In this document: in pieces, positions 18,725 to 63,900 of the stretch
Numbering within the stretch: position 1 is the first letter of the stretch
Layout: each line of letters starts with the position of its first letter
Origin: Eledone cirrhosa
Lineage: Eukaryota
NCBI GenBank assembly: GCA_964016885.1
Contig: OZ024753.1
Coordinates: 17,918,001 to 17,982,000, forward strand
DNA: 64,000 bases
Reading direction: 5' to 3'
Translations under genes and position numbers: made by a program
Notes under the pieces: model-generated
Told to the model about the DNA's origin: nothing
Seen by the model: only the letters and a program-made list of their open reading frames with translations
Database searches by the model: none

Positions 18725-19142
18725 TATAAAATAAAATAAATAAGTAAAATGTTTACAATTTGGCTTCGTTTATTACTGCTTTATATATTTCGGTGACAGC
18801 CATCTTTGGCTGTGACCTCTTCAGGCAGTCCGAATTAGTGTGGTAGAGACGAGTACAGATGTTGTTGAGGTGTATAACTTTGTCAATACTCTGATATGCC
18901 CAGTTCCTGTGTACTCGTCTCTACCACACTAATTCGGACTGCCTGAAGAGGTCACAGTCAAAGATGGCTATCACCGAAATATATATTGCAGTAATAAACG
19001 AAGCCAATTTTTAAACATTTGACTTATTTATTTATTTTATTTTACATTACTCCGGAGTAACCAAACCAACCTGCGAACTTCGTCGAGTGCTCCAGCCTGC
19101 ATACTGAGGTGTTGGTATACAGCCAACATATACTCAAACTTT
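18725..19142 (+). mobile_element. Fold-back PLE-type mini-element, family C
   Basis: 18727-18857 is inverted at ~18910-19040, then a ~100-bp tail; both arms carry an HHR; TA flanks. Confidence 0.8.
18938..18992 (+). ncRNA. Type I hammerhead
   Basis: acugc-CUGAAGA(18943-18949)-ggu.c.acaguc/ggcuau.c.acc-GAAA(18976)-uauau-AUU-gcagu; mirror copy at ~18775-18830 on the minus strand. Confidence 0.8.
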
Positions 19143-19164
19143 ATATATATATATATATATATAT

Positions 19165-22100
19165 ATAGATAATTTAATATATCAACTAACATAAGCGCAC
19201 AGATGCACGCCCATGCCAGCAAATACACAGGTTATGTCATAGTACCTAGGTGGTTCAATGCAGGAGAATGCAGAACAATAATATAAAGGACGTAAAATAA
19301 GAAAATATTTTTTTAAAAAAATTTAAAAAAAAAATTTTTTTTCTTACTTAAATTTTCACTCCAACTAATTAGTTTCTGCAATGGGATAAAGACAGTTACG
19401 TAATCCAACTGTCGAGAATTCATTGCGTCATCAGGAAGTCTATTCTCAGTTAAGTCTCCAGGCAATGCGCGGACACTGGCGGCTCATATAAAAATAATAA
19501 TAATTCGGTAGATCGAACAGCTTGCGTGGACTGGATTCTATGTACCGAAATTCTCACTGCTTCAAGTCAAATGGCCGATTCTAAAGAATCAATCACGTGA
19601 CACAGAGGCTAGTTAGAAGGAATGGGATGGTAAGATGACTGACGCCTACTAACACCCCAAAAAAAAATTTTTTTAGAAGTGGTTTTGACAAGTTTGCTCG
19701 ACAAATCAGTGATTTGGAGATAAATATAGATAATTTAATATATCAACTAACATAAGCGCACAGATGCACGCCCATGCCAGCAAATACACAGGTTATGTCA
19801 TAGTACCTAGGTGGTTCAATGCAGGAGAATGCAGAACAATAATATAAAGGACGTAAAATAAGAAAATATTTTTTTAAAAAAATTTAAAAAAAAATTTTTT
19901 TTTCTTACTTAAATTTTCACTCCAACTAATTAGTTTCTGCAATGGGATAAAGACAGTTACGTAATCCAACTGTCGAGAATTCATTGCGTCATCAGGAAGT
20001 CTATTCTCAGTTAAGTCTCCAGGCAATGCGCGGACACTGGCGGCTCATATAAAAATAATAATAATTCGGTAGATCGAACAGCTTGCGTGGACTGGATTCT
20101 ATGTACCGAAATTCTCACTGCTTCAAGTCAAATGGCCGATTCTAAAGAATCAATCACGTGACACAGAGGCTAGTTAGAAGGAATGGGATGGTAAGATGAC
20201 TGACGCCTACTAACACCCCAAAAAAAAATTTTTTTAGAAGTGGTTTTGACAAGTTTGCTCGACAAATCAGTGATTTGGAGATAAATATAGATAATTTAAT
20301 ATATCAACTAACATAAGCGCACAGATGCACGCCCATGCCAGCAAATACACAGGTTATGTCATAGTACCTAGGTGGTTCAATGCAGGAGAATGCAGAACAA
20401 TAATATAAAGGACGTAAAATAAGAAAATATTTTTTTAAAAAAATTTAAAAAAAAAAATTTTTTTTTCTTACTTAAATTTTCACTCCAACTAATTAGTTTC
20501 TGCAATGGGATAAAGACAGTTACGTAATCCAACTGTCGAGAATTCATTGCGTCATCAGGAAGTCTATTCTCAGTTAAGTCTCCAGGCAATGCGCGGACAC
20601 TGGCGGCTCATATAAAAATAATAATAATTCGGTAGATCGAACAGCTTGCGTGGACTGGATTCTATGTACCGAAATTCTCACTGCTTCAAGTCAAATGGCC
20701 GATTCTAAAGAATCAATCACGTGACACAGAGGCTAGTTAGAAGGAATGGGATGGTAAGATGACTGACGCCTACTAACACCCCAAAAAAAAAAAAAATTTT
20801 TTTAGAAGTGGTTTTGACAAGTTTGCTCGACAAATCAGTGATTTGGAGATAAATATAGATAATTTAATATATCAACTAACATAAGCGCACAGATGCACGC
20901 CCATGCCAGCAAATACACAGGTTATGTCATAGTACCTAGGTGGTTCAATGCAGGAGAATGCAGAACAATAATATAAAGGACGTAAAATAAGAAAATATTT
21001 TTTTAAAAAAATTTAAAAAAAAATTTTTTTTTTCTTACTTAAATTTTCACTCCAACTAATTAGTTTCTGCAATGGGATAAAGACAGTTACGTAATCCAAC
21101 TGTCGAGAATTCATTGCGTCATCAGGAAGTCTATTCTCAGTTAAGTCTCCAGGCAATGCGCGGACACTGGCGGCTCATATAAAAATAATAATAATTCGGT
21201 AGATCGAACAGCTTGCGTGGACTGGATTCTATGTACCGAAATTCTCACTGCTTCAAGTCAAATGGCCGATTCTAAAGAATCAATCACGTGACACAGAGGC
21301 TAGTTAGAAGGAATGGGATGGTAAGATGACTGACGCCTACTAACACCCCAAAAAAAAAAAATTTTTTTAGAAGTGGTTTTGACAAGTTTGCTCGACAAAT
21401 CAGTGATTTGGAGATAAATATAGATAATTTAATATATCAACTAACATAAGCGCACAGATGCACGCCCATGCCAGCAAATACACAGGTTATGTCATAGTAC
21501 CTAGGTGGTTCAATGCAGGAGAATGCAGAACAATAATATAAAGGACGTAAAATAAGAAAATATTTTTTTAAAAAAATTTAAAAAAAAATTTTTTTTTCTT
21601 ACTTAAATTTTCACTCCAACTAATTAGTTTCTGCAATGGGATAAAGACAGTTACGTAATCCAACTGTCGAGAATTCATTGCGTCATCAGGAAGTCTATTC
21701 TCAGTTAAGTCTCCAGGCAATGCGCGGACACTGGCGGCTCATATAAAAATAATAATAATTCGGTAGATCGAACAGCTTGCGTGGACTGGATTCTATGTAC
21801 CGAAATTCTCACTGCTTCAAGTCAAATGGCCGATTCTAAAGAATCAATCACGTGACACAGAGGCTAGTTAGAAGGAATGGGATGGTAAGATGACTGACGC
21901 CTACTAACACCCCAAAAAAAAAAAAAATTTTTTTAGAAGTGGTTTTGACAAGTTTGCTCGACAAATCAGTGATTTGGAGATAAATATAGATAATTTAATA
22001 TATCAACTAACATAAGCGCACAGATGCACGCCCATGCCAGCAAATACACAGGTTATGTCATAGTACCTAGGTGGTTCAATGCAGGAGAATGCAGAACAAT

Positions 22101-24993
22101 AATATAAAGGACGTAAAATAAGAAAATATTTTTTTAAAAAAATTTAAAAAAAAATTTTTTTTTTCTTACTTAAATTTTCACTCCAACTAATTAGTTTCTG
22201 CAATGGGATAAAGACAGTTACGTAATCCAACTGTCGAGAATTCATTGCGTCATCAGGAAGTCTATTCTCAGTTAAGTCTCCAGGCAATGCGCGGACACTG
22301 GCGGCTCATATAAAAATAATAATAATTCGGTAGATCGAACAGCTTGCGTGGACTGGATTCTATGTACCGAAATTCTCACTGCTTCAAGTCAAATGGCCGA
22401 TTCTAAAGAATCAATCACGTGACACAGAGGCTAGTTAGAAGGAATGGGATGGTAAGATGACTGACGCCTACTAACACCCGAAAAAAAAAAAATTTTTTTA
22501 GAAGTGGTTTTGACAAGTTTGCTCGACAAATCAGTGATTTGGAGATAAATATAGATAATTTAATATATCAACTAACATAAGCGCACAGATGCACGCCCAT
22601 GCCAGCAAATACACAGGTTATGTCATAGTACCTAGGTGGTTCAATGCAGGAGAATGCAGAACAATAATATAAAGGACGTAAAATAAGAAAATATTTTTTT
22701 AAAAAAATTTAAAAAAAAATTTTTTTTTCTTACTTAAATTTTCACTCCAACTAATTAGTTTCTGCAATGGGATAAAGACAGTTACGTAATCCAACTGTCG
22801 AGAATTCATTGCGTCATCAGGAAGTCTATTCTCAGTTAAGTCTCCAGGCAATGCGCGGACACTGGCGGCTCATATAAAAATAATAATAATTCGGTAGATC
22901 GAACAGCTTGCGTGGACTGGATTCTATGTACCGAAATTCTCACTGCTTCAAGTCAAATGGCCGATTCTAAAGAATCAATCACGTGACACAGAGGCTAGTT
23001 AGAAGGAATGGGATGGTAAGATGACTGACGCCTACTAACACCCCAAAAAAAAAAAATTTTTTTAGAAGTGGTTTTGACAAGTTTGCTCGACAAATCAGTG
23101 ATTTGGAGATAAATATAGATAATTTAATATATCAACTAACATAAGCGCACAGATGCACGCCCATGCCAGCAAATACACAGGTTATGTCATAGTACCTAGG
23201 TGGTTCAATGCAGGAGAATGCAGAACAATAATATAAAGGACGTAAAATAAGAAAATATTTTTTTAAAAAAATTTAAAAAAAAATTTTTTTTTCTTACTTA
23301 AATTTTCACTCCAACTAATTAGTTTCTGCAATGGGATAAAGACAGTTACGTAATCCAACTGTCGAGAATTCATTGCGTCATCAGGAAGTCTATTCTCAGT
23401 TAAGTCTCCAGGCAATGCGCGGACACTGGCGGCTCATATAAAAATAATAATAATTCGGTAGATCGAACAGCTTGCGTGGACTGGATTCTATGTACCGAAA
23501 TTCTCACTGCTTCAAGTCAAATGGCCGATTCTAAAGAATCAATCACGTGACACAGAGGCTAGTTAGAAGGAATGGGATGGTAAGATGACTGACGCCTACT
23601 AACACCCCAAAAAAAAAAAAAATTTTTTTAGAAGTGGTTTTGACAAGTTTGCTCGACAAATCAGTGATTTGGAGATAAATATAGATAATTTAATATATCA
23701 ACTAACATAAGCGCACAGATGCACGCCCATGCCAGCAAATACACAGGTTATGTCATAGTACCTAGGTGGTTCAATGCAGGAGAATGCAGAACAATAATAT
23801 AAAGGACGTAAAATAAGAAAATATTTTTTTAAAAAAATTTAAAAAAAAATTTTTTTTTTCTTACTTAAATTTTCACTCCAACTAATTAGTTTCTGCAATG
23901 GGATAAAGACAGTTACGTAATCCAACTGTCGAGAATTCATTGCGTCATCAGGAAGTCTATTCTCAGTTAAGTCTCCAGGCAATGCGCGGACACTGGCGGC
24001 TCATATAAAAATAATAATAATTCGGTAGATCGAACAGCTTGCGTGGACTGGATTCTATGTACCGAAATTCTCACTGCTTCAAGTCAAATGGCCGATTCTA
24101 AAGAATCAATCACGTGACACAGAGGCTAGTTAGAAGGAATGGGATGGTAAGATGACTGACGCCTACTAACACCCGAAAAAAAAAAAATTTTTTTAGAAGT
24201 GGTTTTGACAAGTTTGCTCGACAAATCAGTGATTTGGAGATAAATATAGATAATTTAATATATCAACTAACATAAGCGCACAGATGCACGCCCATGCCAG
24301 CAAATACACAGGTTATGTCATAGTACCTAGGTGGTTCAATGCAGGAGAATGCAGAACAATAATATAAAGGACGTAAAATAAGAAAATATTTTTTTAAAAA
24401 AATTTAAAAAAAAATTTTTTTTTCTTACTTAAATTTTCACTCCAACTAATTAGTTTCTGCAATGGGATAAAGACAGTTACGTAATCCAACTGTCGAGAAT
24501 TCATTGCGTCATCAGGAAGTCTATTCTCAGTTAAGTCTCCAGGCAATGCGCGGACACTGGCGGCTCATATAAAAATAATAATAATTCGGTAGATCGAACA
24601 GCTTGCGTGGACTGGATTCTATGTACCGAAATTCTCACTGCTTCAAGTCAAATGGCCGATTCTAAAGAATCAATCACGTGACACAGAGGCTAGTTAGAAG
24701 GAATGGGATGGTAAGATGACTGACGCCTACTAACACCCCAAAAAAAAATTTTTTTAGAAGTGGTTTTGACAAGTTTGCTCGACAAATCAGTGATTTGGAG
24801 ATAAATATAGATAATTTAATATATCAACTAACATAAGCGCACAGATGCACGCCCATGCCAGCAAATACACAGGTTATGTCATAGTACCTAGGTGGTTCAA
24901 TGCAGGAGAATGCAGAACAATAATATAAAGGACGTAAAATAAGAAAATATTTTTTTAAAAAAATTTAAAAAAAAATTTTTTTTTCTTACTTAA
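19165..24993 (-). mobile_element. Tandem array of 10 full + 1 partial 561-568-bp hammerhead-containing monomers (retrozyme-like)
   Basis: Monomer starts near 19165, 19726, 20287, 20855, 21420, 21986, 22551, 23115, 23681, 24246, 24807; copies differ almost only in homopolymer length; each full copy has tcatcag and aactaattagtttc. Confidence 0.9.
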
Positions 24994-26261
24994 TGACGCA
25001 ATGAATTCTCGACAGTTGGATTACGTAACTGTCTTTATCCCATTGCAGAAACTAATTAGTTGGAGTGAAAATTTAAGTAAGAAAAAAAAATTTTTTTTTA
25101 AATTTTTTTAAAAAAATATTTTCTTATTTTACGTCCTTTATATTATTGTTCTGCATTCTCCTGCATTGAACCACCTAGGTACTATGACATAACCTGTGTA
25201 TTTGCTGGCATGGGCGTGCATCTGTGCGCTTATGTTAGTTGATATATTAAATTATCTATATTTATCTCCAAATCACTGATTTGTCGAGCAAACTTGTCAA
25301 AACCACTTCTAAAAAAATTTTTTTTTGGGGTGTTAGTAGGCGTCAGTCATCTTACCATCCCATTCCTTCTAACTAGCCTCTGTGTCACGTGATTGATTCT
25401 TTAGAATCGGCCATTTGACTTGAAGCAGTGAGAATTTCGGTACATAGAATCCAGTCCACGCAAGCTGTTCGATCTACCGAATTATTATTATTTTTATATG
25501 AGCCGCCAGTGTCCGCGCATTGCCTGGAGACTTAACTGAGAATAGACTTCCTGATGACGCAATGAATTCTCGACAGTTGGATTACGTAACTGTCTTTATC
25601 CCATTGCAGAAACTAATTAGTTGGAGTGAAAATTTAAGTAAGAAAAAAAAATTTTTTTTTAAATTTTTTTAAAAAAATATTTTCTTATTTTACGTCCTTT
25701 ATATTATTGTTCTGCATTCTCCTGCATTGAACCACCTAGGTACTATGACATAACCTGTGTATTTGCTGGCATGGGCGTGCATCTGTGCGCTTATGTTAGT
25801 TGATATATTAAATTATCTATATTTATCTCCAAATCACTGATTTGTCGAGCAAACTTGTCAAAACCACTTCTAAAAAAATTTTTTTTTTTTTGGGGTGTTA
25901 GTAGGCGTCAGTCATCTTACCATCCCATTCCTTCTAACTAGCCTCTGTGTCACGTGATTGATTCTTTAGAATCGGCCATTTGACTTGAAGCAGTGAGAAT
26001 TTCGGTACATAGAATCCAGTCCACGCAAGCTGTTCGATCTACCGAATTATTATTATTTTTATATGAGCCGCCAGTGTCCGCGCATTGCCTGGAGACTTAA
26101 CTGAGAATAGACTTCCTGATGACGCAATGAATTCTCGACAGTTGGATTACGTAACTGTCTTTATCCCATTGCAGAAACTAATTAGTTGGAGTGAAAATTT
26201 AAGTAAGAAAAAAAAATTTTTTTTTTAATTTTTTTAAAAAAATATTTTCTTATTTTACGTC

Positions 26262-26268
<7 letters not shown>
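24993..26268 (+). mobile_element. Inverted segment of the same array (~2.3 monomers)
   Basis: Exact reverse complement of the monomer; ends cgtcctttata into (TA)n. Confidence 0.9.
25546..25627 (+). ncRNA. Type I hammerhead, representative of all array monomers (second + copy from 26111)
   Basis: acuuc-CUGAUGA(25551-25557)-c-gcaaug..gacaguu/aacuguc..cauugc-a-GAAA(25609)-C-UAAUUA-GUU(25620-25622)-ggagu. Confidence 0.85.
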
Positions 26269-26300
<32 letters not shown>

Positions 26301-26419: not shown

Positions 26420-26804
26420 TATAAATTAATAAACACAATGAAATAAAAACAAAGAACAAGTTCCTTATATTAAAAAAAAAAAAAATTCATCATCTTACGA
26501 TTGTTTCTGGGATGTATATGTGTGTTGGTATGTATATCATATTTATCTATGGAAAAATATTACAAATTATCAGAGGAAATATACATACCTTCACATATAC
26601 ATGCCGTCCTCAGAAACGATCGTAAACTGATGAATTTTTTAATATAAGGAACTTGTTCTTTGTTTTTATTTCATTGTTTTTATTAATTTATCTTGACTCT
26701 GTTTTCCTATGATTTTTTTATCGAAAAATTTTAATGCATCTTCTCTTTTCATGATATTTGGATTACATTGAGTTCTTCATACGGGTTGGACACTACCGTA
26801 TATT
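26420..26804 (+). mobile_element. Fold-back PLE-type mini-element, family D
   Basis: 26421-26509 is inverted at 26611-26691; long-stem-II HHR on the minus strand (CUGAGGA at 26607-26613); tail homologous to 1405-1517. Confidence 0.75.
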
Positions 26805-27300: not shown

Positions 27301-27321
27301 ATATTTATTTATTTATTTATT

Positions 27322-27540
27322 TATTAAAATAACAGATTAAAGTTTATGCAAAGAATCGCTGCTTTCACCCTTATCGAGTTTCAGAAGTTTCCGTTAAGGG
27401 TGAAAGCATCGATTCTTTGCTTAAACTGTAATCTGTTATTTTGATAAATATTTGCTCTACGGTTTTTATATATTTAATATATATTCATTCTTATCGAGCC
27501 CCCTTTGGATTTTAGTCTTCAAATTTATTATTATTACTAT
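27322..27540 (+). mobile_element. Fold-back PLE-type mini-element, family E
   Basis: 27322-27373 is inverted at 27392-27445, then a tail; reverse copy at 35286-35460. Confidence 0.7.
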
Positions 27541-27555
27541 ATATATATATATATA

Positions 27556-30500
27556 TTGTTATATTTGGGGAGGGTCATATTTGCGTAATATTGCCAGAAT
27601 TAATAACAGAACACACTCACTGTTTGGTTGGTTTTCGATTCTCGCTGCCTTTTATATATATATATATCTGCGATCTAACTTACTCGGTCCTCAATGTTGC
27701 CATTGACTGACCGGCGGTCAAAAATAATACAGATACAATATAGACAAACACATATATATATAGTTTACATAATTTACATAAATCTTTCGTTGCACATCTG
27801 CAACATCGTCAGTGGTGTTATATTCATTGTTCCTCCTGTTGTGTTGTATGTCTACGCCATTTTTTTTTTTGTGTTCAGTCTGTCTATATATTTATTTATT
27901 TATTTGCTTGTTTGTTTATCTTATTTTATTTTGTCTTCTTTGCGCATGCGTTTGCGTGTGTGTATAGTGTTATGTGTGATGTGTGACTAGTGTGTATAGT
28001 GTTGTGTCTGCTGGGTGACTAGTGTGTGTTTATGTGCTTGTGTATGTATTTATTTATCTTATTTTATTTTATTTAATTTACTTATTTATTTATACTTCTC
28101 TTAGGTCAATGTTGTTTGTTTGGGTGTTGTTGTTGTTCCACTCATTCTTTCTGTTTAGCTTTGGTCTTCTAATTTCTATTTCACTGGCCTCTCTGATTTG
28201 CCTATCTGCTGGGTCATTCCTATGTTTAGATATTATTCTAATTTCTATGTTGTCTATGTTACCGTCATGTTGTTGTCTAGCATGTTCGTATAGTACTGAC
28301 CCGTTTTTTCGTCCTTTTAGTTCCCCCCAGTGTTGGTCTATCCTTTCACCTATGCTACGAGCTGTCTCACCTATGTATGTTGTTGTCGTGTTTCTGCAAG
28401 TACCCTCTGTACATCTTATGCTATAGACTACGTTTCTAGTTTTACAGTTTATCCGGGGGTTCACCTTACATATGATACATTTCCTATTGGTACAGTGGGT
28501 TTTCTTAAAAGGGTAGGTTTTGCTGATCAGGGATTTTATGGTGGTTCCTGGCTTTTCTACCACCTTTATTTTTAAGTGGGTCTTTCTCAGGGCCTTTCTA
28601 CACTGGTTAGCTAATTTCCCTCCAGGGGTGGCGTCCACAAACATGACACTCTGATATCTCTGGTTGTCGTACCATGATGTGGCCTTCCCTATCTTATGTC
28701 TAGTCCTATCTAAGCTATTCCATGATTTGCTCCTGTATAGTGGGCAAATTCCTTTCATGTCCAGTTCTATGAGGGTCTTATACTTTTCCATGGCTCCTTC
28801 GTATACTCTGACTCTGTCTCTTTGGTTGTAGCCAGAGAACTGCATGCGGTTGATGAAGTGTTGGATGTGTCCTTCCATTTCTGTTGGGTCGCACATGCTG
28901 GACACATTCTTCATCACTCGTACCAAATCTGCGATCAGAATATTAAACTTAGCACTACTGGACATTGCTGAGTTTTTGAGTATCAGGTATTTGGAGGCCA
29001 TGGGTTTAGCATAGTGTGAGTGGAGAATTTGGGCTCTCTCGTCTATAGTGTTAATCCAGAGTTCTGTGTCTAATACAGGTAGTCTATTGTTAGGGTGTTT
29101 GGAAGGGAAGTCTATAGTTACAGTTATACTCTGGTGTATGGAATTAGCTATCTGCTGGATGCTTTCCATCGTGCTACGTTCTAAATCAAACTTGTTAGTG
29201 CTCTCTAGTGGGGGTGTTCTTATAACTATATTGATATCGTCTACATAACGAGAGTACATGATGAGGTCTATGGAGCTTTCATTAAGGAGATCTTTAAGTC
29301 TCCTTTCCCACCATACCATGAAAAGGTTGGCAACATCACCAGCTATGCTGACGCCGATGGCTGCTCCCTCATTTTGGGTGTAGATTTTCTCATTGAACTT
29401 AAATATGTGGCCCTTTAGGGTAGTTTTGATACTAGCCCCTATTGCATGTGCGACCATTTTTCTTACCTGATCAGTGTTTTGGGGGGTCCGTATAGCTTTG
29501 GTCCACCCAATCCACCTTCCTATGGGAGTCTTTTTAGCCATTGAGGTTATGGTGGGGGGTCTACCTCTTATAGGTCTACTAGGGCAGAAACATCTAAGGT
29601 CATGGCTGTCTAGGTAGTCAGTGTCGTAGGTAAGTCTAAGTAGGAGGCCCAGTTCGTCTGTGTCGACGTCGCAGAACTCCACCTCACTCTCAATGATCAT
29701 CTCCACACATCTTTTCACAGCAAAATCAATGTTAATGGATGGGTACAGTGACACCACATCCATGCTGCCTATTATGCAGTTGGATAGGCTCCTGTTTTTG
29801 TTGCACTCACTGATTCTGCTGAGGAGGTCCTCTGTACTTTCACATACATCTGGGGACATCTTGATTATGGGGCGTATAACCATTGAGAGGAAGTAGGAGA
29901 TCCTGTAGTTGCTAGCTATATTAGCTCCGCATACGGGTCTTGTTGGTGGTCCTGTTGTCGGGTCGTCGACTGTCTTGTGGTCTTTGCGGAGCCCATACAA
30001 GGGTGGTATGCCATTGTTAGACGCCTGGAAGTTGTTGGCAGTGCGTCTGCTTGGCTTTAGGATGTCAGTCCACATCATCATGTGAGCGTTGAGGATTTTT
30101 TCTCTCCCATCGTGTGTTAGTTGTGCAACTTCGCTCGTGTTGGTGATGTGGGGTTGCATTGCCTCGATGTAGTTCGGCATGCTATCTATTGACATCCTAC
30201 CAGACTTATCTGTGGGTAGACACACTACCTCACCATCCCTTGTGCGCTGCTTGAGGCTAACCAAGCCTTCTACAGGTTTTATCCCAAGTTGTTGGGCCTC
30301 TGGTCTGCTCTGTCTCATAGTGTACCTGTCTACTACTTGTCTAATCTTATTTCTAGCTATGGTGAACTGTGCCTCCGTCTCGTCATCTATTTGCTGTGGT
30401 ATGCAAACTCTTTTATTAAAGGGTAACCTCGTAGGATAGATATTACCCATCTTATATGTTTTGTCAGCTGGGTTGAAAAATAGTTTCTCTAAGGGGTTGT

Positions 30501-31741
30501 CGTTATTTCTATCGTCATAGTTGTGTGTGTTGCTATTATTGTTATCATGGTGGTTGTTGTTGTTTCTATCATTAGCATTAATATTATTATTGTTATGATT
30601 GCTAGATGTATTGTTGTTTACTTCACCGTTATTGTTGTTGTTGTTACTGCTATTTCTACCATTGTGGTTGTTACTATTATTATGTTTCTTGTTTTTGTTG
30701 ATGTTGCTACATGTACTATTTCCATTATTACCACTGTGGTTATTGTTGTTGTTGTTGTTCGTATTGTTACCGTTATTACTACTGTGGTCACTGTTGCTGT
30801 GTCTGTGGTTAACGTTTCTATTATTATTATTATTGTGGTTGTTGTTGTTCTGTCTATCGCTAGTATTATTACCATTATCACTATTTCTCACTTTCCTGCC
30901 ATTGTTATGGTTATGGCTGTTATTTCTATCCCCAGAGTTATTGTTTATATTACTACTACCGTTATTATTGTTGTTGTTGTTGTTTACCTTTGCATTCCAA
31001 CGTATTTTTGTGAAACACTTTTCCAGCTCCGTTTTGCATTCCATAGGGTTAATCTTTTTGTAGATGGCAAATTTTGGTGGTAACTTTAGGATTTGTTGTT
31101 CTTGTTCACTGATTAAAGTGTTCCCATAGATATTTACTGTGTGGTCATTGGTAAATTCTTCCGGTAGTTTTACATCACTCATACGGATGTTGTCGATGTT
31201 ATCTGGGTATTTTTGAGAATATTCGATTTTCCCCAGCAGACACAACACTATACACACTAGTCACACATCACACATAACACTATACACACACGCAAACGGA
31301 TGCGCAAAGAAGACAAAATAAAATAAGATAAACAAACAAGCAAATAAATAAATAAATATATAGACAGACTGAACACAAAAAAAAAAAAAAATGGCGTAGA
31401 CATACAACACAACAGGAGGAACAATGAATATAACACCACTGACGATGTTGCAGATGTGCAACGAAAGATTTATGTAAATTATGTAAACTATATATATATG
31501 TGTTTGTCTATATTGTATCTGTATTATTTTTGACCGCCGGTCAGTCAATGGCAACATTGAGGACCGAGTAAGTTAGATCGCAGATATATATATATATAAA
31601 AGACAGCGAGAAGCGAAAACCAACCAAACAGTGAGTGTGTTCTGTTATTAATTCTGGCAATATTACGCAAATATGACCCTCCCCAAATATAACAATATCT
31701 GTTTCGACACACGATTTCATATAAAAAACCTCGCAAAACTA
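27556..31741 (-). mobile_element. Young Penelope-like element with ~460-bp inverted pLTRs
   Basis: 27556-28016 and 31232-31696 are near-identical inverted repeats; extra 45-bp tail at 31697-31741; TA flanks. Confidence 0.95.
28090..31257 (-). CDS. PLE polyprotein: reverse transcriptase + C-terminal GIY-YIG endonuclease (Neptune/Nematis-like); N-terminus truncated at the pLTR junction
   Basis: 1055-aa open frame: PTDKSG, PPLYGLRKDHK, RPVC, SMDVVSLYPSI, GAAIG, RYVDDI, LPVLD, CxxxxCxxC..C, NVVY..YIGETARS..ERIDQH, LNRKNEW. Confidence 0.92.
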   Translation of the reverse strand: MCIVLCLLGKIEYSQKYPDNIDNIRMSDVKLPEEFTNDHTVNIYGNTLISEQEQQILKLPPKFAIYKKINPMECKTELEKCFTKIRWNAKVNNNNNNNNGSSNINNNSGDRNNSHNHNNGRKVRNSDNGNNTSDRQNNNNHNNNNNRNVNHRHSNSDHSSNNGNNTNNNNNNNHSGNNGNSTCSNINKNKKHNNSNNHNGRNSSNNNNNNGEVNNNTSSNHNNNNINANDRNNNNHHDNNNSNTHNYDDRNNDNPLEKLFFNPADKTYKMGNIYPTRLPFNKRVCIPQQIDDETEAQFTIARNKIRQVVDRYTMRQSRPEAQQLGIKPVEGLVSLKQRTRDGEVVCLPTDKSGRMSIDSMPNYIEAMQPHITNTSEVAQLTHDGREKILNAHMMMWTDILKPSRRTANNFQASNNGIPPLYGLRKDHKTVDDPTTGPPTRPVCGANIASNYRISYFLSMVIRPIIKMSPDVCESTEDLLSRISECNKNRSLSNCIIGSMDVVSLYPSINIDFAVKRCVEMIIESEVEFCDVDTDELGLLLRLTYDTDYLDSHDLRCFCPSRPIRGRPPTITSMAKKTPIGRWIGWTKAIRTPQNTDQVRKMVAHAIGASIKTTLKGHIFKFNEKIYTQNEGAAIGVSIAGDVANLFMVWWERRLKDLLNESSIDLIMYSRYVDDINIVIRTPPLESTNKFDLERSTMESIQQIANSIHQSITVTIDFPSKHPNNRLPVLDTELWINTIDERAQILHSHYAKPMASKYLILKNSAMSSSAKFNILIADLVRVMKNVSSMCDPTEMEGHIQHFINRMQFSGYNQRDRVRVYEGAMEKYKTLIELDMKGICPLYRSKSWNSLDRTRHKIGKATSWYDNQRYQSVMFVDATPGGKLANQCRKALRKTHLKIKVVEKPGTTIKSLISKTYPFKKTHCTNRKCIICKVNPRINCKTRNVVYSIRCTEGTCRNTTTTYIGETARSIGERIDQHWGELKGRKNGSVLYEHARQQHDGNIDNIEIRIISKHRNDPADRQIREASEIEIRRPKLNRKNEWNNNNTQTNNIDLREV

Positions 31742-35647: not shown

Positions 35648-35694
35648 ACTGCAGACACTAATGTTTCTGGGTAATTACCCTTCATCAGTACAGT
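35648..35694 (-). ncRNA. Compact type I hammerhead with GUC triplet
   Basis: acugua-CUGAUGA-a-ggguaauuaccc-a-GAAA-ca-uuag-u-GUC-ugcagu; 6-bp stem I. Confidence 0.8.
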
Positions 35695-47043: not shown

Positions 47044-50000
47044 AAGGATAAAAAGGACGATTGATTATTCCTTCATTGCATTTATTGATAGGTGACGCGC
47101 GTTTCGCCGCTGATCAGCTCAAGGTTCGATCTATATCGATCCTACCCGACTCAATAATCCGTAGCTCGACGGACCTTCTTAAAATGCTATAAGAAAATGA
47201 AATACATGCTATGTGATAAAGTCAGATATTCAAGAGAAGGGTCAAGGCGATGTATTGGCCTGTAGTGTATATGGGGGTGGGTGTGATGGTGAGATGTTGG
47301 TGACGATGGGTGGATGAGATGGGCTGTGGTGTGGTGGTGGTTGATTGGTCTTGGTGTGTAGAGTATGTGGGGGTGGATGTTATGATATGGTGGTGGTTAT
47401 GGTTGCTTAGTGGGATGGGCTGTGGTATGAGGTCAGCAGAAGGGTTGGGTGTGTGTGGGGGTGTGGTATTGGTGCCGCTGTCTATGGTAGTGGCGTTTGC
47501 GGTGGTGTGGCGGATGTATTGGTGGCGTCAAGGTCATTACCTAGATACTTAGCTAGACGCTCATCGTCTGACAGATGCTTTGTATATACGTATACGCACA
47601 CACATATAGGCATATATGTGCACACATACTGTTGTATAAACACACCCACCACAAAACACATACGCACATCCTTGCCCACACATATCGACACACGCTCACA
47701 CAGCCATATGTATATGTACACACATGTATGTGCGTGTGCGCATGCGGACACGAATATGGAGAGTGGGGGAGTATCGTTGGGGGTGGCGAACGACGGAGAT
47801 GGGGGAAGGTGAGAGGCAATATAGAAGGTGTTTTACATACATACATACACATACATATACCCATACACACATATGGGTATGGGCACATGGACTCACACTC
47901 ACGTATACAAAATATACACATACACACTCACACACACGTATACACACGCACATATATTCACATACATATATATACATACACATATATATATATATACATA
48001 TATAAATATATATATAAATACATATACACACACACATGTACAGACAACACAGATATACACGCACATATACACATACATGCACGTACATGAGCTCACCTAC
48101 ACATATAGTCAGATTCACCCATATACATATATGTAGACGTGCACATATACACACATACATACACATACATATAGACACACACACACATACACATACGCAT
48201 ACACATACACATATATATACAGATACGTACCCACACATACACACATGTATACACCTGCGCTCACATACACACACACACACGTACAATAACTATGCGTACC
48301 CGCACGCACACTCATACGTCCGTATGTGTAAGAATACCTACACACCGACACACACGCTATTGTTGGTTGGGGAGTGGGGGGTATGTGTTGTCGGTGTTGG
48401 TGAAGTATGGAGTTGTGTTTTGTGGTGGTGGTGGTGGAGTTGTGAGGGACAAAAATATATATACAGGATCGAATACCGGTTAAAAGGTGACATAGGGAAC
48501 GCGGGGGAGAAGCGTTTATGGACGTACGGCGATGTGTATTGTGGACATGGTGATGGTGGTGGTGCTGGGTGATATGTTCGACAAGATGATTACATGATCA
48601 GAGGTTACGGTGTGTTATAGGGTAAGGCAGGCGGGGGTTGGGGGATATATAATACAGTCGATCTGGGAGCGAGGGGTGATATGTGTTGATGATGTTAATG
48701 ATAATGATTGTTGAGGTATTTGGATGTATCTAGTGGTGGCGGTGGTTGTGTGTGCGTGCGACAGTACAATTACAGGGTCGAATTTAGCGTGGGGTTGTAG
48801 GTTAGGGTAGACAGGGGGAACATGGGGGATGAGGCTGTAGGTGTGTATGGTAGGCATATGACGATGTGTCGAGTGGTGGTGGTGGCGATGGTGTGATATG
48901 ATCGACATTGTATTTACAAGGTCCCTTGTCATTGTGGATTGCAAGGTAGATCGTATCATAGGATACCGATCTAATACGATGTTGCAACGATGAGGTGTGT
49001 ATGTTGATGTGAATTTTGGTGGTGGTGGTGGTGATGTGTGCGGCATGATATAGAAATGCGGATTTAGAAATGGTTACATGGAGTACAATACAATAAGTTC
49101 ATTGAGGTGGGCGATGTTGAGACGGGGTATATGTGGTTATTAATATGGTGTGTCATGGTTAGTGTGATTTTTGGTGTGGGTTATGTATGCGGCATGATAT
49201 ACAAAATACGGGCTTATATATGGTTAAATGCAATACAATAAAATAAGATAAAGTAAAGTAAGATTAGAATTAAAATTCGTTGAGATCGGCGATAGTGATA
49301 CGGGGCAGATATGGTTATTATTATGGTGGGTCATGGTTAGTGCGTGGCCCTCCCGCGAAAGTTTGTGCAGAAAAGGTGTTCATCCTAGTGTGTCTGCAAT
49401 TGACAATTATGTCCGACCTATAGTTTATGGCGGAATTTAGTTTAATTATTTCCACCGCCTGAGCTAGGCATAATCTGCAGTGATTTCTGTCACTGGGGAT
49501 ATATGCCACGCGTCTTTTTACTGACCACGAAATCTGGGGTTCAATATTCCTGTCCTTGAGGTCCCAGATCAAGTCGGCCAGTTTTGTTTGGGGTCGTTTC
49601 GATCTATGTTTGAAGGAGCCTCTGTGGTTATACCAGCGCTCCTTAAACGTTGTGGATGTCGCACCTATATATGAGTACTCCTTATTGCCGGCTGTGACAT
49701 CGCACCGGTAAACAGTATTCTTAACGAGGCACTCCCCGTTTAGTGGGCATTCGGCTCGTATTTTGCAGTTGCATTTGGGTGTAACCGGTGCGGTGGCACG
49801 ATGGCGGTTGGTGTCATGCGGTGTTGGTGTGGTGTGTGCTGTTGTGTTGTGTTGTGTGTGTGGTTTCGTTCTGGGTTGTGGTGGTGGTTTGTTGAGGGGA
49901 AACCATGTGTTTTTGTATTTTTGCCCTATTATTGTGTGCTATTGTGTGACCTAGGTTTGGTGCTGTGGAGAAAGAGAATTTTACGGTGTGTCTATTGAAG

Positions 50001-56716: not shown

Positions 56717-59700
56717 TTTCTTTATCAACCACAAGTGTTTAGACAAAGTAGTCTTACTTTGTGTAAGGACAATACAGGACAACACAGGACAATACAGGAC
56801 GGTACAAATGGTCATTTCTGCGTGTAAAAAACAAAAATAGAGGATGTAACAAAAAAAGAAAGAATGAAAAATTCCCCAATAGGGGGAGTCTTTCGAGGGA
56901 AATTCGTGGAGAAAGCCCATTAAAAAAGTCACGGTAACCCTGACCACCCGGGCAAGTGCCCTCTCCCAGTTTTCCACCTTCAATTTACAGGCGCATACTC
57001 AGAGGAGATCCATTCACTGGGGCCATGCTTGCTCTCTCACCCATCTTTCCACAAAATGCTGGGAAGAGAGCACTTCCCTCTCTACTTTGATTTTCCTTAT
57101 CAAATGAAATTTGAAAAAGTTAATGAGGGCATCCCCAAAGAGGTAAGTGCTCATTTCAGCCCTTTCAAACGCAACCACCACACTATCTCTTTCGCCATGG
57201 CCACCTGACAGATAAAAACTGCCTGCGCTTCCCGGCTAAAGGAAGAGGGCGGAGCAATCCTCACAATGGACTCAGCTGATAGCTGGATCCGTCCTACACG
57301 CGATAGCAGGTGTTCGACATAAACCCACAAGTCAGTAATGCTCTGACACTGGACGAGTGCGAGCAGGACGGTTTCGTCGCCCAGTGCGCATCTCGGACAT
57401 GCCCGACTCACGGCACTTCCATACCTGTAGAGTTTATTCCGAACTGGCAAAGTTCCTCGGTAGCACTGCCAGGCCGGGGATTTCTGGAAGTTGTTCATAG
57501 GCTCCGGCCCGAAAGTTCCCCCGAACAGATTGGCTAGTTGATTTTCGTCGACGTCCAGAGTCTCCCCAAGTACGACGTCGCTATTCCCCTCCACTAATCC
57601 TCTATAGAACGCTGAGGTAGAGTTTACACTGATCGCATTGCCCGACTGATCGAGGGCTGTGAGCGCCTAAAGACATTCCAGTCTCGAAGCGCTCCCTCTC
57701 GATCTTCGCATGACCCAGGACTGCAGCTCCGTCAAGGAGACTAGCTAGGGAAACACGCGTCTAGCAAACAGCGACCAACCCTGATCACCGCCGAGGAAGA
57801 GGTGGAGATGTCGTAGCCTGAGCGCGTGTCTGCGCATCATCAGTCATGGTATGCCTAGCCCTCCACGTAGCGAGTGTTGACAGCAGATGGACCGCCTGAC
57901 CATCCGAGCGCATCCCTTCCACAAAAAGCGAAAGAGCAAACGTTCCAGCGCACTCAGGCGAGGCACGACGGTCAGGCGGTAGTAGATGACGGACGCGATG
58001 TATGCATTCCCCACTTCCGCTCGACCTTTCAGCGATAGCTTCATCTCTCCCCATTTCTGGGTGAGAGAAGCCAACTTGTTCGTCACCTCGTCCCAGTTTT
58101 TGTCCGTCTGGAGGTCCGGACCGAACCAGACCCCTGGCAATTTAACCGGTCCGTCCATCCAGCGCCCGACAACGCTGTTGAACGGCATGGACCTGCCTCT
58201 CCAGGTGCGGAGCTGCAGGCTCACCGACTTTTCCTGGTTGATCATTGCTCCTGTCACCACCTCGTATTCTCTTAGTGTGGTGCCGATCACCTCGATGTGT
58301 TTGGCGTTCGACACCACTACGGCGACATCGTCTTCATATGCTGACACGGGTCTTCCACATCCCAGTTCGCGCTGGACCCCCCCTCAACGTCTCCAGTTTT
58401 TTCAGTAATGACTCGGGAGTCAATACGTAAAACAGGGACGAGAGGTGACATCCTTGGTGGATCGAGCGCATGATGTTGAACGGTTCCGAAAGGTGACCGT
58501 TCACTCTCACCACAGAGCAGATGTCGCTGTTCATGTCAGCGATCCAGCCTCTGAAAACGGGCCCAAAGTCAATCGCCCTCAGGACTGCCGCCAGATAACG
58601 ATGGTCGACCCTATCGAAAGCTTTCGCTGATCTAAATTGATCAAGGACCCACACGTGCCATGTTCCCTAGCTACCCTCTCCACGAAGTATCGCATGAGGT
58701 GGAGGTTGACGTGATTGATCTGTCTGGGATGGCGCAGTTTGCGCCTCTCTTACCAGACAACCAATGACAAGCGCCAACCTCTTTACTACCACCTTGGCCA
58801 AAATCTTGAACTATGTGTTTAGCAGAGATATGGGCCTGAAATGATCTATGTTATCACCCTTGTTAGTATCCTTTCTCAGCAGCGTCACCGCTCCTCGGCT
58901 AACAGAGCTGGAAATTCTCCCGTTCTGTTGCCAGTTGCAGTAGACGTCCGCCTAGGGGTCTCCGAACAAGTCTGGCATGTATACGTAAAGTTCGTAGGGC
59001 AGACCATCCAAACCAGGTGATTTACCCTTTGTGCAGCCAGTCATTGCCTCCCGTACTTCAGCGGCTGTTATCGGCTTTTCGCAACACTCCGCCTCAGTGG
59101 CCGAGAGCCGCGGTATTAGTCGAGGTAGGCACTAAAGTCCATCCCTCGATCCGGCCGGCCGCTGCCCCCGAACAGCTGGGCGAAGTGTCGCAGAAAATCT
59201 TCACACATTTGCCCGGGATCGAGTAGCATGCGCCCGTCGTGGTCCACCAAAGACCGGATCCTGGCTTTGTTGCCACGACGCGCCTCCGCCACTCGCTTCC
59301 AGTAGCCGGGTCCCTGAAGTCTATCTAAGTCAACCTCACAGACCACGAATTTGTGGTCCGTGTAGTCGACTATTTTGAATTGTGGACAGCCTATGCTAGA
59401 CCTATCTATTTCCCTACAAAATACCCTATATATATATATATATATGATCTGTATGACTCGATGCGGTTTGTTCATCTCCACATTGGCACATTCGGGAAAT
59501 CCAGACGGTACTGTCTGAGCAGGTTTGCGAGGCTTTTACACCCTCCTCTCCTATCCGCCAATCCCACACAGTCCCAACGTGTATCTAAGATCCCGTTCCA
59601 GTCGCCCACTAACACTAAAGAGCGGACGTTCCAAGAAAGGTCTCCAGACGCCGGAAGAAATCAGGCCGCCCTGCTCCTGTCGGGCATATACGGCCACTAG

Positions 59701-60989: not shown

Positions 60990-63900
60990 ATCATTTATTT
61001 ATGGGGCAGCACTTCTCTCTCCACCCCCACCTTCCTTTCCAAGTGAAACTTGAAAAAGTAGATGAGGGATTGGCCGAAGAGAAAAGTGTCTGTCTTCAGT
61101 CCTTTCGACCTCGTCCACCATACAACCTCTTTCGCTACTGCCACCAGTCAGAGGAAAATTGCCTTCCCTTCCTGGCCAAAAGAAGGCGGCGGGTCGATCT
61201 TCACTGTGGACTCGGCCGATAGCCGGATCCGTTCTACACGCGACAACAGCTGTTCAACATAACTCTACAAGTCAGTAACGCACCTATACTGGACGAGTGC
61301 GTGAAGAACGGTCTCGTCGTTCTGTGCGCATCTCAGGCAGCACTTCCGTGCCTGTAGAGTTTATCTCGAACCGGTAGTGCCCCCCCCTCCCCCCGGTAGC
61401 ACTACCAAGCGAGGGATTTTTGGAAATTATCCATCTTCCCCGGCTCGAAAGTCCTCCGGTACAGATTGGTTAGTTCGACTTCGTTGACTCCCAGAGCCTC
61501 TCCGAGTGCGTCGTCGCACTACCCCCCCACTAATCCTCTATAGAACTCGAGAGAGGAAGTTACACTGAGCGCATTGCCCGCCTGGTAGAGGGCAGTGAGT
61601 GCCTGGCAACATTCCAGATGCCAGTCACCCAGTCTCGGTCTCTTCTTGACCCAGGACTGCAACTCAGTCAAAGAAACGAACTGAGGAAAGGCCCGTCTGA
61701 CAAACGGCGACCACACCTGTTCACCGTTTAGGCAGAATATATGGAGATGCCGCAGCCTCAGCGCGTGCATGGGCATCATTAGCCACGCATGCCCAGCCCT
61801 CCACGTAGAGGGTGCTGGCAGCAGATGGACCGCCTCACCAGCGGAACCTGACCCCTCCAAAAGAATTTGAAGAGGAGCCGCTCCAAGATGGCGAGGAGCG
61901 AACGGGGGAAAGGGACGACGATCAGACGGTAGTAGATGACGGACGCGATGTACGCGTTCGCCCCCTCCGCTCGACCTTTCAGTGATAGCTTCATGCCAGC
62001 CCATTTCTGAGTGAGACTGGCTACCCTTCCCGTTACCTCCTCCCAATTCTTAACCACCTGGAGGTCTGGCCCGAACCAAACCCCTAGCAACTTTACCGGT
62101 CCATCTGTCCACCGCCTAACAACGCTGATGGACGGCATGGACTTGCCTTTCCAGGTGCCGAGTTGCAAGCCCACCGATTTTTCCGGGTTAGGTTTTACTC
62201 CCGTCAAACTTTCATATTCCTCCAATAAGTTGCCGACCACCTCGATTTCTGAGGTGTCCGACACCATCACGGTGATGTCGTCAGCAGAAGCCGACACAGC
62301 CTTTCCGTGTCCCGGTTTGAGCGGGATTCCCTGCAACAGCTCCAGCTTCCGCAGTAAAGGCTTGAGAGTCAATACGTACAGAAGGGAGGAGAGAGGGCAC
62401 TTTGACGGACCGATCGGGAGACCTGAAACGGTTCCGAGAGGTGGCCATTAACTTTGACCACCGAGCAGATGCCGCTGAGCATTGCAGCGATCCAGCTTCT
62501 GAAGACGGGGCCGAAGCCAGCCGCCTTGAGGACAGCCTCCAGATACCGATGGTCGACCCTATCGAATGCTTTCGATCGATCTAAATTGATCAGAGCCCCA
62601 CCGGAGCCAGGTTTACACCCTACCCTCTCTATGATGTATCGCATTAGGTGGAGGTTGTCGTGTATGGACCTGGTTGGGATTGCGCAAGTTTGCACCTCCC
62701 CAACCAAATCCCCGACGACAAGCGCCAACCTCTTCGCTAACACCCTGGCCAAAATCTTAAACTCTGTGTTGAGCAGAGTTATGGGCCTGAAATTGTCTAA
62801 TGTGTCCCTCTTGTTCTCGTTTTTCCATATCAGCGTCACTACGCCCAGGCTCACAGAACTGGGAATACTCCCGTTTTGCTGTCAGTTGAAGTAGAGGCCT
62901 TCGAGTAGATTGGAGAACAAGTCAGGCATATTTACGTAAAGTTCGTAGGGCAGACCATCCAGACTTGCGCCTCATGCAGCCGACAAGAGCATCCTGAATC
63001 TCGGCTGAAGTAATTGGCCTTTCGCAGCGCCCAGCGTCAGCCGTCGAGAGTTGCGGCAAGCCATCGAGGTAGGGACTGAAGTCCGCCACCATCTCTGACC
63101 CGCCACTTCCCCCGAACAACCGCGCAAAATGTTGGCGAAAGCCCTCACACATCCGCTTGGAATCGCTCAGCTCGTGTCCGTCTCGGTCCGTCAAAGACCG
63201 AATCATGGTTTTATTACCACGCTGCGCCTCTGCCACGCGGGCCCATCGAACAGCTTTGGTTCCCTCGTTTCTCAGAGCACGCGCCTTAACTCTGACAATG
63301 CAGCCTTCGTGTTCGCATTGAAGAAATGGTCTAATGCCATTCTCGCCGCTAGCACGTCAGTTGCAATGCCACTACCAATAGCCACGTCTAACTTATCTAC
63401 CAACTCCCCCTCCTTTCTATTTTTCTCTAACGCTACTTCTTTGATAAACTCTATCGACATTACTCTAATCTCTCTTTTGAGAGCCCCCACCATCTATTGT
63501 TGACGACTCCCCCTATCAACATTTTCTTAACTAAATTGTTGACCTGTAAGCCTTACGTGCCGGAAATGACATGTTTAGCTTCCAGTAACCAGGTCTTAAC
63601 CTACGCGTCTTATCTAGGTCGACCATACAGATCACAAGCTTGTGATCCGAATAGGCGACCGTTTCAAAACGTGGACAGCTTACACTATTTCTGTCTATTT
63701 TCCTCATGAATATCCTGTCTATATATGATCTAGATGACCCTATGCGGTTAGCCCAGGTCCACACTGGCGCATTAGGGAAATCTAGTCGGTACCTGTCAGA
63801 CAGTTGGAACTGGCTGATAAGTTCTTGAGGCTTTTGCACCCCCCGCTCCTATCGGATACTCTCACACAGTCCCAGCGTGCGTCTAAGATGCCGTTCCAGT

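Follow-up and report, generated by a model that had tools for sequence, protein, structure and literature searches.

Metazoan non-LTR retrozymes are described as dispersed, many-copy tandem repeats that do not code for protein and have a type I hammerhead in every unit, and a circular RNA template and a Penelope-type mobiliser have been proposed for them (PMC7229834; Li, Clavereau and Pollet 2026, 10.64898/2026.07.22.740005). Penelope-like elements, in the excerpts consulted (Craig et al. 2021, PMC8557442; Arkhipova et al. 2013, PMC3846280), carry an inverted, 5'-truncated head-to-head copy at the 5' end, a one-sided tail of 30-40 nt and palindromes at inverted junctions, and lie in (TA)n targets. 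In vitro, PAc (Poseidon, Anolis) cuts and extends both target strands in AT-rich DNA and uses two internal start sites, the interval between them being the tail (Frangieh et al. 2024, PMC11167929).

The window analyzed here is a 64,000-nt stretch of Eledone cirrhosa DNA (GCA_964016885.1, contig OZ024753.1, positions 17,918,001 to 17,982,000 of the forward strand). At 19159-26269 it contains a two-armed hammerhead retrozyme with a 565-nt monomer, inserted in (TA)n and with its arms fused 5'-to-5'. The element consists of head-to-tail repeats with a hammerhead in every unit, as in non-LTR retrozymes, and has no coding capacity (the longest Met-started frame in a monomer trimer is 36 aa). The top copies of this 565-nt family are 96-100% identical, dispersed and recently mobile. 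On its sequence organization, the element is a member of the animal non-LTR retrozymes. Its monomer is longer than the 170-400 nt given by Cervera and de la Pena 2020 (PMC7229834). The excerpts of metazoan retrozyme descriptions consulted (PMC7229834; 10.64898/2026.07.22.740005) contain no two-armed inverted insertions, no fixed start sites and no junction maps, all of which are presented here for an element known from genome sequence. The inverted 5'-truncated copy, the one-sided tail, the (TA)n target and the palindrome at the inverted junction are shared with Penelope-like elements, which differ in having an ORF, in lacking arms that are both multimers, and in a tail shorter than the 122 nt found here (PMC8557442, PMC3846280). 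None of the RNA runs examined contained over 0.06 of the monomer words. In a neighboring part of the monomer, the family reached high depth in three RAD-seq runs labeled as one species, with no joints listed, data that are uninformative on the junction.

The window element and its inversion junction

Monomer positions are counted from +1, the first base 3' of the predicted GUU cut (window 25623), with CUGAUGA at 494-500 of 565. The features are as follows.

19142-19164, no strand: (TA)n target, left flank
19159-24993, minus strand: long arm, ~10.3 head-to-tail monomers of 561-567 nt each
24993, no strand: inversion junction, 1-nt microhomology (A) common to both arms
24993-26269, plus strand: short arm, 1277 nt (69 nt + 2 monomers + 82 nt)
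24994-25072, plus strand: palindrome spacer, 79 nt (80 counting the shared A), a 5'-truncated hammerhead
25077-25132 (monomer +16..+71), plus strand: A/U-rich hairpin, largest arm-end hotspot of the 565-nt family
25531-25638, plus strand: intact type I hammerhead motif, CUGAUGA at 25551, predicted cut after 25622
26096-26203, plus strand: another intact hammerhead motif, the second in the short arm
26265-26297, no strand: (TA)n target, right flank

In RNA sense, the long arm begins at monomer +12, with the sequence UUAAGUAAG starting 11 nt beyond the predicted cut, and ends at its outer (3') end at +204, the tail-bearing start site. It carries ten further intact hammerhead motifs on the minus strand. 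The short arm begins at monomer 497 (A6 of the core), opening with AUGA of CUGAUGA, and has its outer (3') end at +82. These positions agree with the first-pass annotation, which had placed the start of the minus-strand multimer at 24993, 11 nt 3' of the GUU cut, the beginning of the inverted part at AUGA within the core, and an 80-nt spacer between arms of ~1.2 kb. The inverted arms align over ~1.2 kb (23797-24993 against 25073-26269) and differ by two mismatches and two single-base gaps. Joining two arms of any periodic array 5'-to-5' yields a spaced palindrome of this kind. The same annotation had identified the spacer with the hammerhead itself, and the content of the spacer does not bear this out: helix II, helix III, the cut site (a remnant, after 25061) and the 3' strand of helix I are present, but the 5' strand of helix I is missing, as is C3-U4-G5. 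Judging from known core requirements, this broken hammerhead is predicted to be inactive.

The monomer contains a type I hammerhead motif (core CUGAnGA / GAAA / NUH and helices I-III). The intact motif at 25531-25638 has a helix I with distal (CUUAA/UUAAG) and proximal (ACUUC/GGAGU) parts, a helix II, GAAA, and a palindromic helix III of three pairs within a 12-nt palindrome; helix III is likewise built in dimer-capable animal hammerheads (PMC4209133). Where the canonical fold has a G10.1-C11.1 pair at the base of helix II, one unpaired base on each side (C on the 5', A on the 3') sets helix II apart from the core, which can be read as a C-A mismatch or as a G-C pair plus two extra bases. An extra 5' base has been reported for PLE ribozymes (PMC4209133). 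Across 35 distinct copies from the 565-nt family and sister subfamilies, the helices as drawn from the window pair in 90.9% of cells (98.6% for helix II). Eight pairs are changed on both sides, and 0 of 500 shuffles reach the covariation score, a result that kinship among sequences can by itself produce. The invariance of the core in these copies is by construction, because they were chosen by core pattern. A search of the window against Rfam gave zero gathering-level matches and no hammerhead match up to E = 10. Another short hammerhead-like motif lies at 35688 on the minus strand.

The flanks of the element are unrelated unique sequence on the two sides. Adjoining the left flank, at 18762-19010, is a separate inverted repeat with ~120-nt arms, and a similar one lies at ~27310-27440. 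Beside the right flank, at 26597-26640, GAAAC is followed shortly by CUGAUGA, a possible hammerhead with a different strand order.

Outer ends and the template of the two arms

Loci of the 565-nt family were mapped by jumping alignment (39 loci picked by similarity, 140 picked by pattern, and the window), giving a curated set of 181 elements and 300 arm ends. Sister-family segments, TA-only matches and duplicates (L070 and a second copy in L126) were left out. Curation was done by hand: nine elements were re-entered and seven corrected, and the corrections to L076 and L192 put ends inside +6..+17. One background end, that of L124, abuts unread sequence. Exact end-plus-TA patterns have 262, 138 and 587 matches in the genome.

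The set contains 119 two-arm elements, all fused 5'-to-5', and 62 one-arm elements. Where both outer ends of a two-arm copy are resolved, one lies at +82 and the other at +204 in 112 of 113 cases; L041, with +82 on both sides, is the sole exception. ATATAT is found at 231 of 238 outer flanks, the inner junction shows a microhomology of 0-3 nt in 107 of the 119 two-arm copies, and in 39 two-arm copies each arm is longer than one monomer. The unlike fixed outer ends, the one-sided tail and the (TA)n target together make up a Penelope-like "tail" footprint. Long palindromes in tandem arrays belong to a known class of artefact, and the window palindrome might be a long-read fold-back chimera or an assembly error. 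However, both of its outer ends follow the family rule, it is flanked by the unrelated unique sequences described above, its arms are not mirror copies, and the same plan recurs in more than 110 other copies. We consider such an origin extremely improbable.

In 81 copies whose arms are both at least 150 nt long, the two arms of a copy disagree at 5 of 1951 polymorphic-site calls, whereas different copies disagree at 13.7%. The variants private to L041, and those private to L115, are present throughout both arms, in each of their monomers. We infer that both arms of a copy were written from one RNA, probably on a circular template; a read-through multimer of a single source locus would equally yield shared haplotypes. 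In L047 (L047:3068-7875), two monomer types occur in strict alternation in both arms, suggesting a dimeric template. The long arm of the window element contains a repeated three-monomer block (21690-24515), with a C variant at 22480 and 24175 and identical homopolymer lengths, for which a later duplication, a template slip and a multimeric template are candidate readings. The window monomers vary in homopolymer lengths, and with the repeated block, a single monomer circle alone is insufficient to explain them.

In 45 of 112 copies the +82 arm exceeds the +204 arm in length, and this, together with the unlike fixed outer ends, means that two primings are needed. The first-pass annotation had instead invoked a strand switch. 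This does not hold, as the outer ends correspond to the fixed start points on the 3' side of the RNA. Moreover, fold-back copying by one enzyme would have reproduced the T12+C and T14 monomers of the long arm, whereas the short arm of the window has T9 and T13. LINE-1 twin priming also involves two primings on one RNA and leads to a head-to-head inversion with a short microhomology join, the first cDNA ending near the second primer's site. Here, in contrast, the +204 arms seldom stop in that region (9 of 117 at 66-98), the position of the second site is constant, and both arms can extend over many monomers; on the first of these counts, a classical twin-priming model with +82 as the block was not supported.

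We favor, with a probability of roughly two in three, a reading in which the window junction marks the place, inside a two-armed retrozyme insertion, where two cDNAs made by dual Penelope-type priming were joined end to end. A Penelope-type protein would cut the (TA)n target DNA, and both cut DNA ends would be primed on one probably circular RNA, at the fixed sites +204 and +82. Each cDNA would then extend a variable distance, likely until halted by RNA structure or chance, and the two cDNA ends would be joined via the 0-3 nt of microhomology. In the window element, ten monomers had likely been written into the long cDNA when it stalled in helix I, and the short one would have ended in the core after two. 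Two independent stops, one in helix I and one in the core, are the most likely account of this junction. In PAc, the start sites are equal on both strands and priming is non-homologous (PMC11167929), whereas here the two ends are almost always unlike, and both start sites end in TA-like letters that match the target.

Inner ends relative to the ribozyme

Leaving out the window, we typed 340 inner ends (65 similarity-picked, 227 pattern-picked and 48 blind). The blind hold-out yielded its 48 ends from 37 loci, with five dropped (arm beyond the fetched stretch, one also a duplicate) and three untyped arms omitted. Counts were compared with a length-matched null in which each arm length was shifted by up to 150 nt.

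The junctions are non-uniform along the monomer, and a small class lies exactly at the predicted cut. The largest hotspot is the A/U hairpin (+21..+65), with 66 ends versus 39 expected. The interval +6..+17 holds 27 ends versus 10.5 under the null (7.2 if uniform; P = 1e-4); this interval was chosen post hoc, after the data had been seen, and a window fixed beforehand (10-16) holds 10 of 275 ends versus 5.1 (P = 0.036). Seven ends, from six elements, fall at the predicted cut (564..+1) versus 2.6 (1.8 if uniform; P = 0.017), and none fall at +2..+5. The core (493-497) has 10 ends versus 3.9 (3.0 if uniform). In a Poisson model of the first 292 ends that adjusted for A+T content, the rate ratios were 5.4 for the cut, 4.1 for +6..+17, 2.2 for the hairpin and 4.4 for the core; A+T content had no effect (P = 0.33) and was rejected as the source of the hotspots. 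The core hotspot was not retained: 4 of the first 65 ends were followed by 6 of 275 versus 3.2 (P = 0.10), the scan was not significant, and a core window set beforehand (488-497) did not replicate (6 of 275 versus 6.4).

The mapping of family junctions against the hammerhead, which the first-pass annotation had put forward as its check, therefore bears out an excess close to the ribozyme and no general location there. About 91% of the 340 ends lie outside +1..+20, and 172 are at 72-473, far from the ribozyme. Most of the signal is contributed by the 227 pattern-picked ends, of which 22 lie at +6..+17 versus 7.4 expected; the similarity-picked set has 3 of 65 there and none at the cut. The 48 blind ends show no clear excess (2 versus 1.5 at +6..+17, 0 versus 0.4 at the cut). 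On these sequence counts, the effect is modest and partly post hoc. If junctions were effectively random, the excess would stem from the choice of interval and from hand curation. The flat blind set, the two ends (L076 and L192) moved by hand into +6..+17 after inspection, and the unreplicated core cluster all fit that account. It is nevertheless very doubtful given the excess in the largest set, the 17 of 168 ends versus 4.6 at +6..+17 in arms longer than one monomer, and the independent excess in the sister family (below).

At least one end lies within 564..+20 in 23 of the 119 two-arm junctions. With about one junction in five so placed, the closeness of any one of them to the ribozyme carries little evidential weight. 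L060 (496/11) is the only other junction among the 119 with the window's geometry and has an identical 80-nt spacer; common descent of the two elements was rejected from their differing flanks and homopolymer pattern and a 2-nt junction offset. A phase coupling of inner ends (-12..+62 nt) was not retained: 43 of 112 versus 19.4 fell to 20 of 71 versus 10.6 without hairpin ends, and the counts were 4 of 18 in the hold-out, all hairpin-related, and 4 of 28 in the sister family.

The first-pass annotation had proposed that reverse transcription ran almost to a ribozyme-made 5' end. In its full form, one reverse transcriptase would reach the self-cleaved end, or the end of a self-opened circle, lose 11 nt and switch by folding back. 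The seven ends at the cut, which include those of L074 and L172, agree with part of this proposal, as does an excess of near-symmetric junctions (ends within 12 nt; 21 of 119 versus 7.2). However, reverse transcription went past the cut site in 620 of 627 passes and stopped at +1 in 7, and the window short arm itself crosses three cut sites. Nor is this short arm a copy of the long arm in fold-back register, and the two primings set out above are at odds with a single enzyme. We regard this explanation as improbable. Because +2..+5 holds no ends, +12 belongs to a separate helix I peak rather than to a trimmed cut-site tail. The interval +6..+17 comprises the internal loop and the distal strand of helix I, the first folded part of the ribozyme that the enzyme meets, and the peak may reflect stalling on entry into folded helix I. 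The empty +2..+5, together with a junction in L209 (L209:6540-7090) that carries ~500 nt of stuttered +7..+20 copies, favors a stall over trimming of a cleaved end. Shorter stutters occur at the junctions of L191 and L184, and L034 has a stutter at another position. L074 (L074:217-503) is a minimal two-arm copy with both arms terminating at the predicted cut, and L172 has a short inverted filler at +1.

The foot of the A/U hairpin adjoins +6..+17, so completion of the hairpin could also account for that peak. Release or slippage after the hairpin is copied would then produce the excess, and proximity to the ribozyme would be incidental. In favor of this, no other hotspot is as large as the hairpin, the 5' foot of which lies at +16, and 5 of the 27 ends in the peak sit at +17. 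We compared this with a sister retrozyme family, represented in the window at 112-984, which has a 512-nt monomer, 73-85% identity in aligned parts and the same two-arm plan. One of its end patterns has 877 exact matches in the genome. Hand tabulation of 60 loci and of the sister copy in the window gave 82 ends, after duplicates, another family and untyped arms had been excluded. In the sister family, +5..+17 retains an excess (9 of 82 versus 3.2, P = 0.005), which in arms of at least 100 nt is not significant (4 of 62 versus 1.9), whereas the hairpin region (+21..+56) has none (6 of 82 versus 8.3). The sister hairpin energy is -1.9 kcal/mol versus -11.2 in the 565-nt family. In addition, a second A/T homopolymer tract of the 565-nt monomer (246-269) is not a hotspot. 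The hairpin is therefore an unlikely source of the peak, though a less remote one than the self-cleaved end. Two sister ends (L220 and L237) are compatible with +1. The window's sister junction, which the first-pass annotation had noted at 693 and away from the ribozyme, does lie far from it, at 691/692 (+110/+282 of 512).

Within the dual-priming reading, the exact +1 class is likely run-off at a self-cleaved end, amounting to ~2% of ends or 1% per pass. The ribozyme likely biases where a cDNA stops and does not cause the inversion, because about nine in ten seams fall elsewhere. Tentatively, and with less confidence than in dual priming itself, the inner seams may be a fossil map of in vivo reverse-transcription stops on ribozyme RNA, in which a Penelope-type enzyme moved around a single RNA circle, starting from two primers, and stalled at folded helix I. 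If so, run-off at a circle self-opened by hammerhead cleavage would occur in ~1% of passes, and the ribozyme would help to set array length.

The part of the PAc study consulted reports that the hammerhead is dispensable for insertion in vitro and that no RNA-seq reads end at the ribozyme site (PMC11167929); here, a few genomic ends are at the cut. For the role of the hammerhead in the Penelope/retrozyme cycle, the junction map supplies testable numbers: templates continuous through the cut in ~99% of passes, as expected of a ligated circle or an uncut multimer, a minor class of run-offs exactly at the cut, and stalling a short way 3' of it. What is new here is this map of retrozyme inner ends; in the literature searched, largely open-access papers, we found no published mapping of retrozyme inversion junctions relative to the ribozyme.

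Neighboring reverse transcriptase sequences

A Penelope-like element lies 1.3 kb from the retrozyme, at ~27553-31740 on the minus strand. It has a 1056-aa stop-free frame with an RT motif, GIY-YIG-like motifs recognized by eye and an RVT_1 match below cut-off. It also has an inverted terminal copy of ~470 nt, a one-sided tail of ~42 nt and TA flanks, and it carries its own hammerhead-like motif (27812 on the minus strand, 31439 on the plus strand). The footprint of two arms plus a tail is common to this element and the retrozyme. The 565-nt monomer shares no sequence with it, the only autonomous candidate compared. Frames at 3472-4755 and 49321-49938 resemble by eye the C-terminal part of Penelope-like ORFs, with no Pfam match, and the ORF list includes fragments of LINE-type reverse transcriptase frames at 57151-58383 and 61519-62894.
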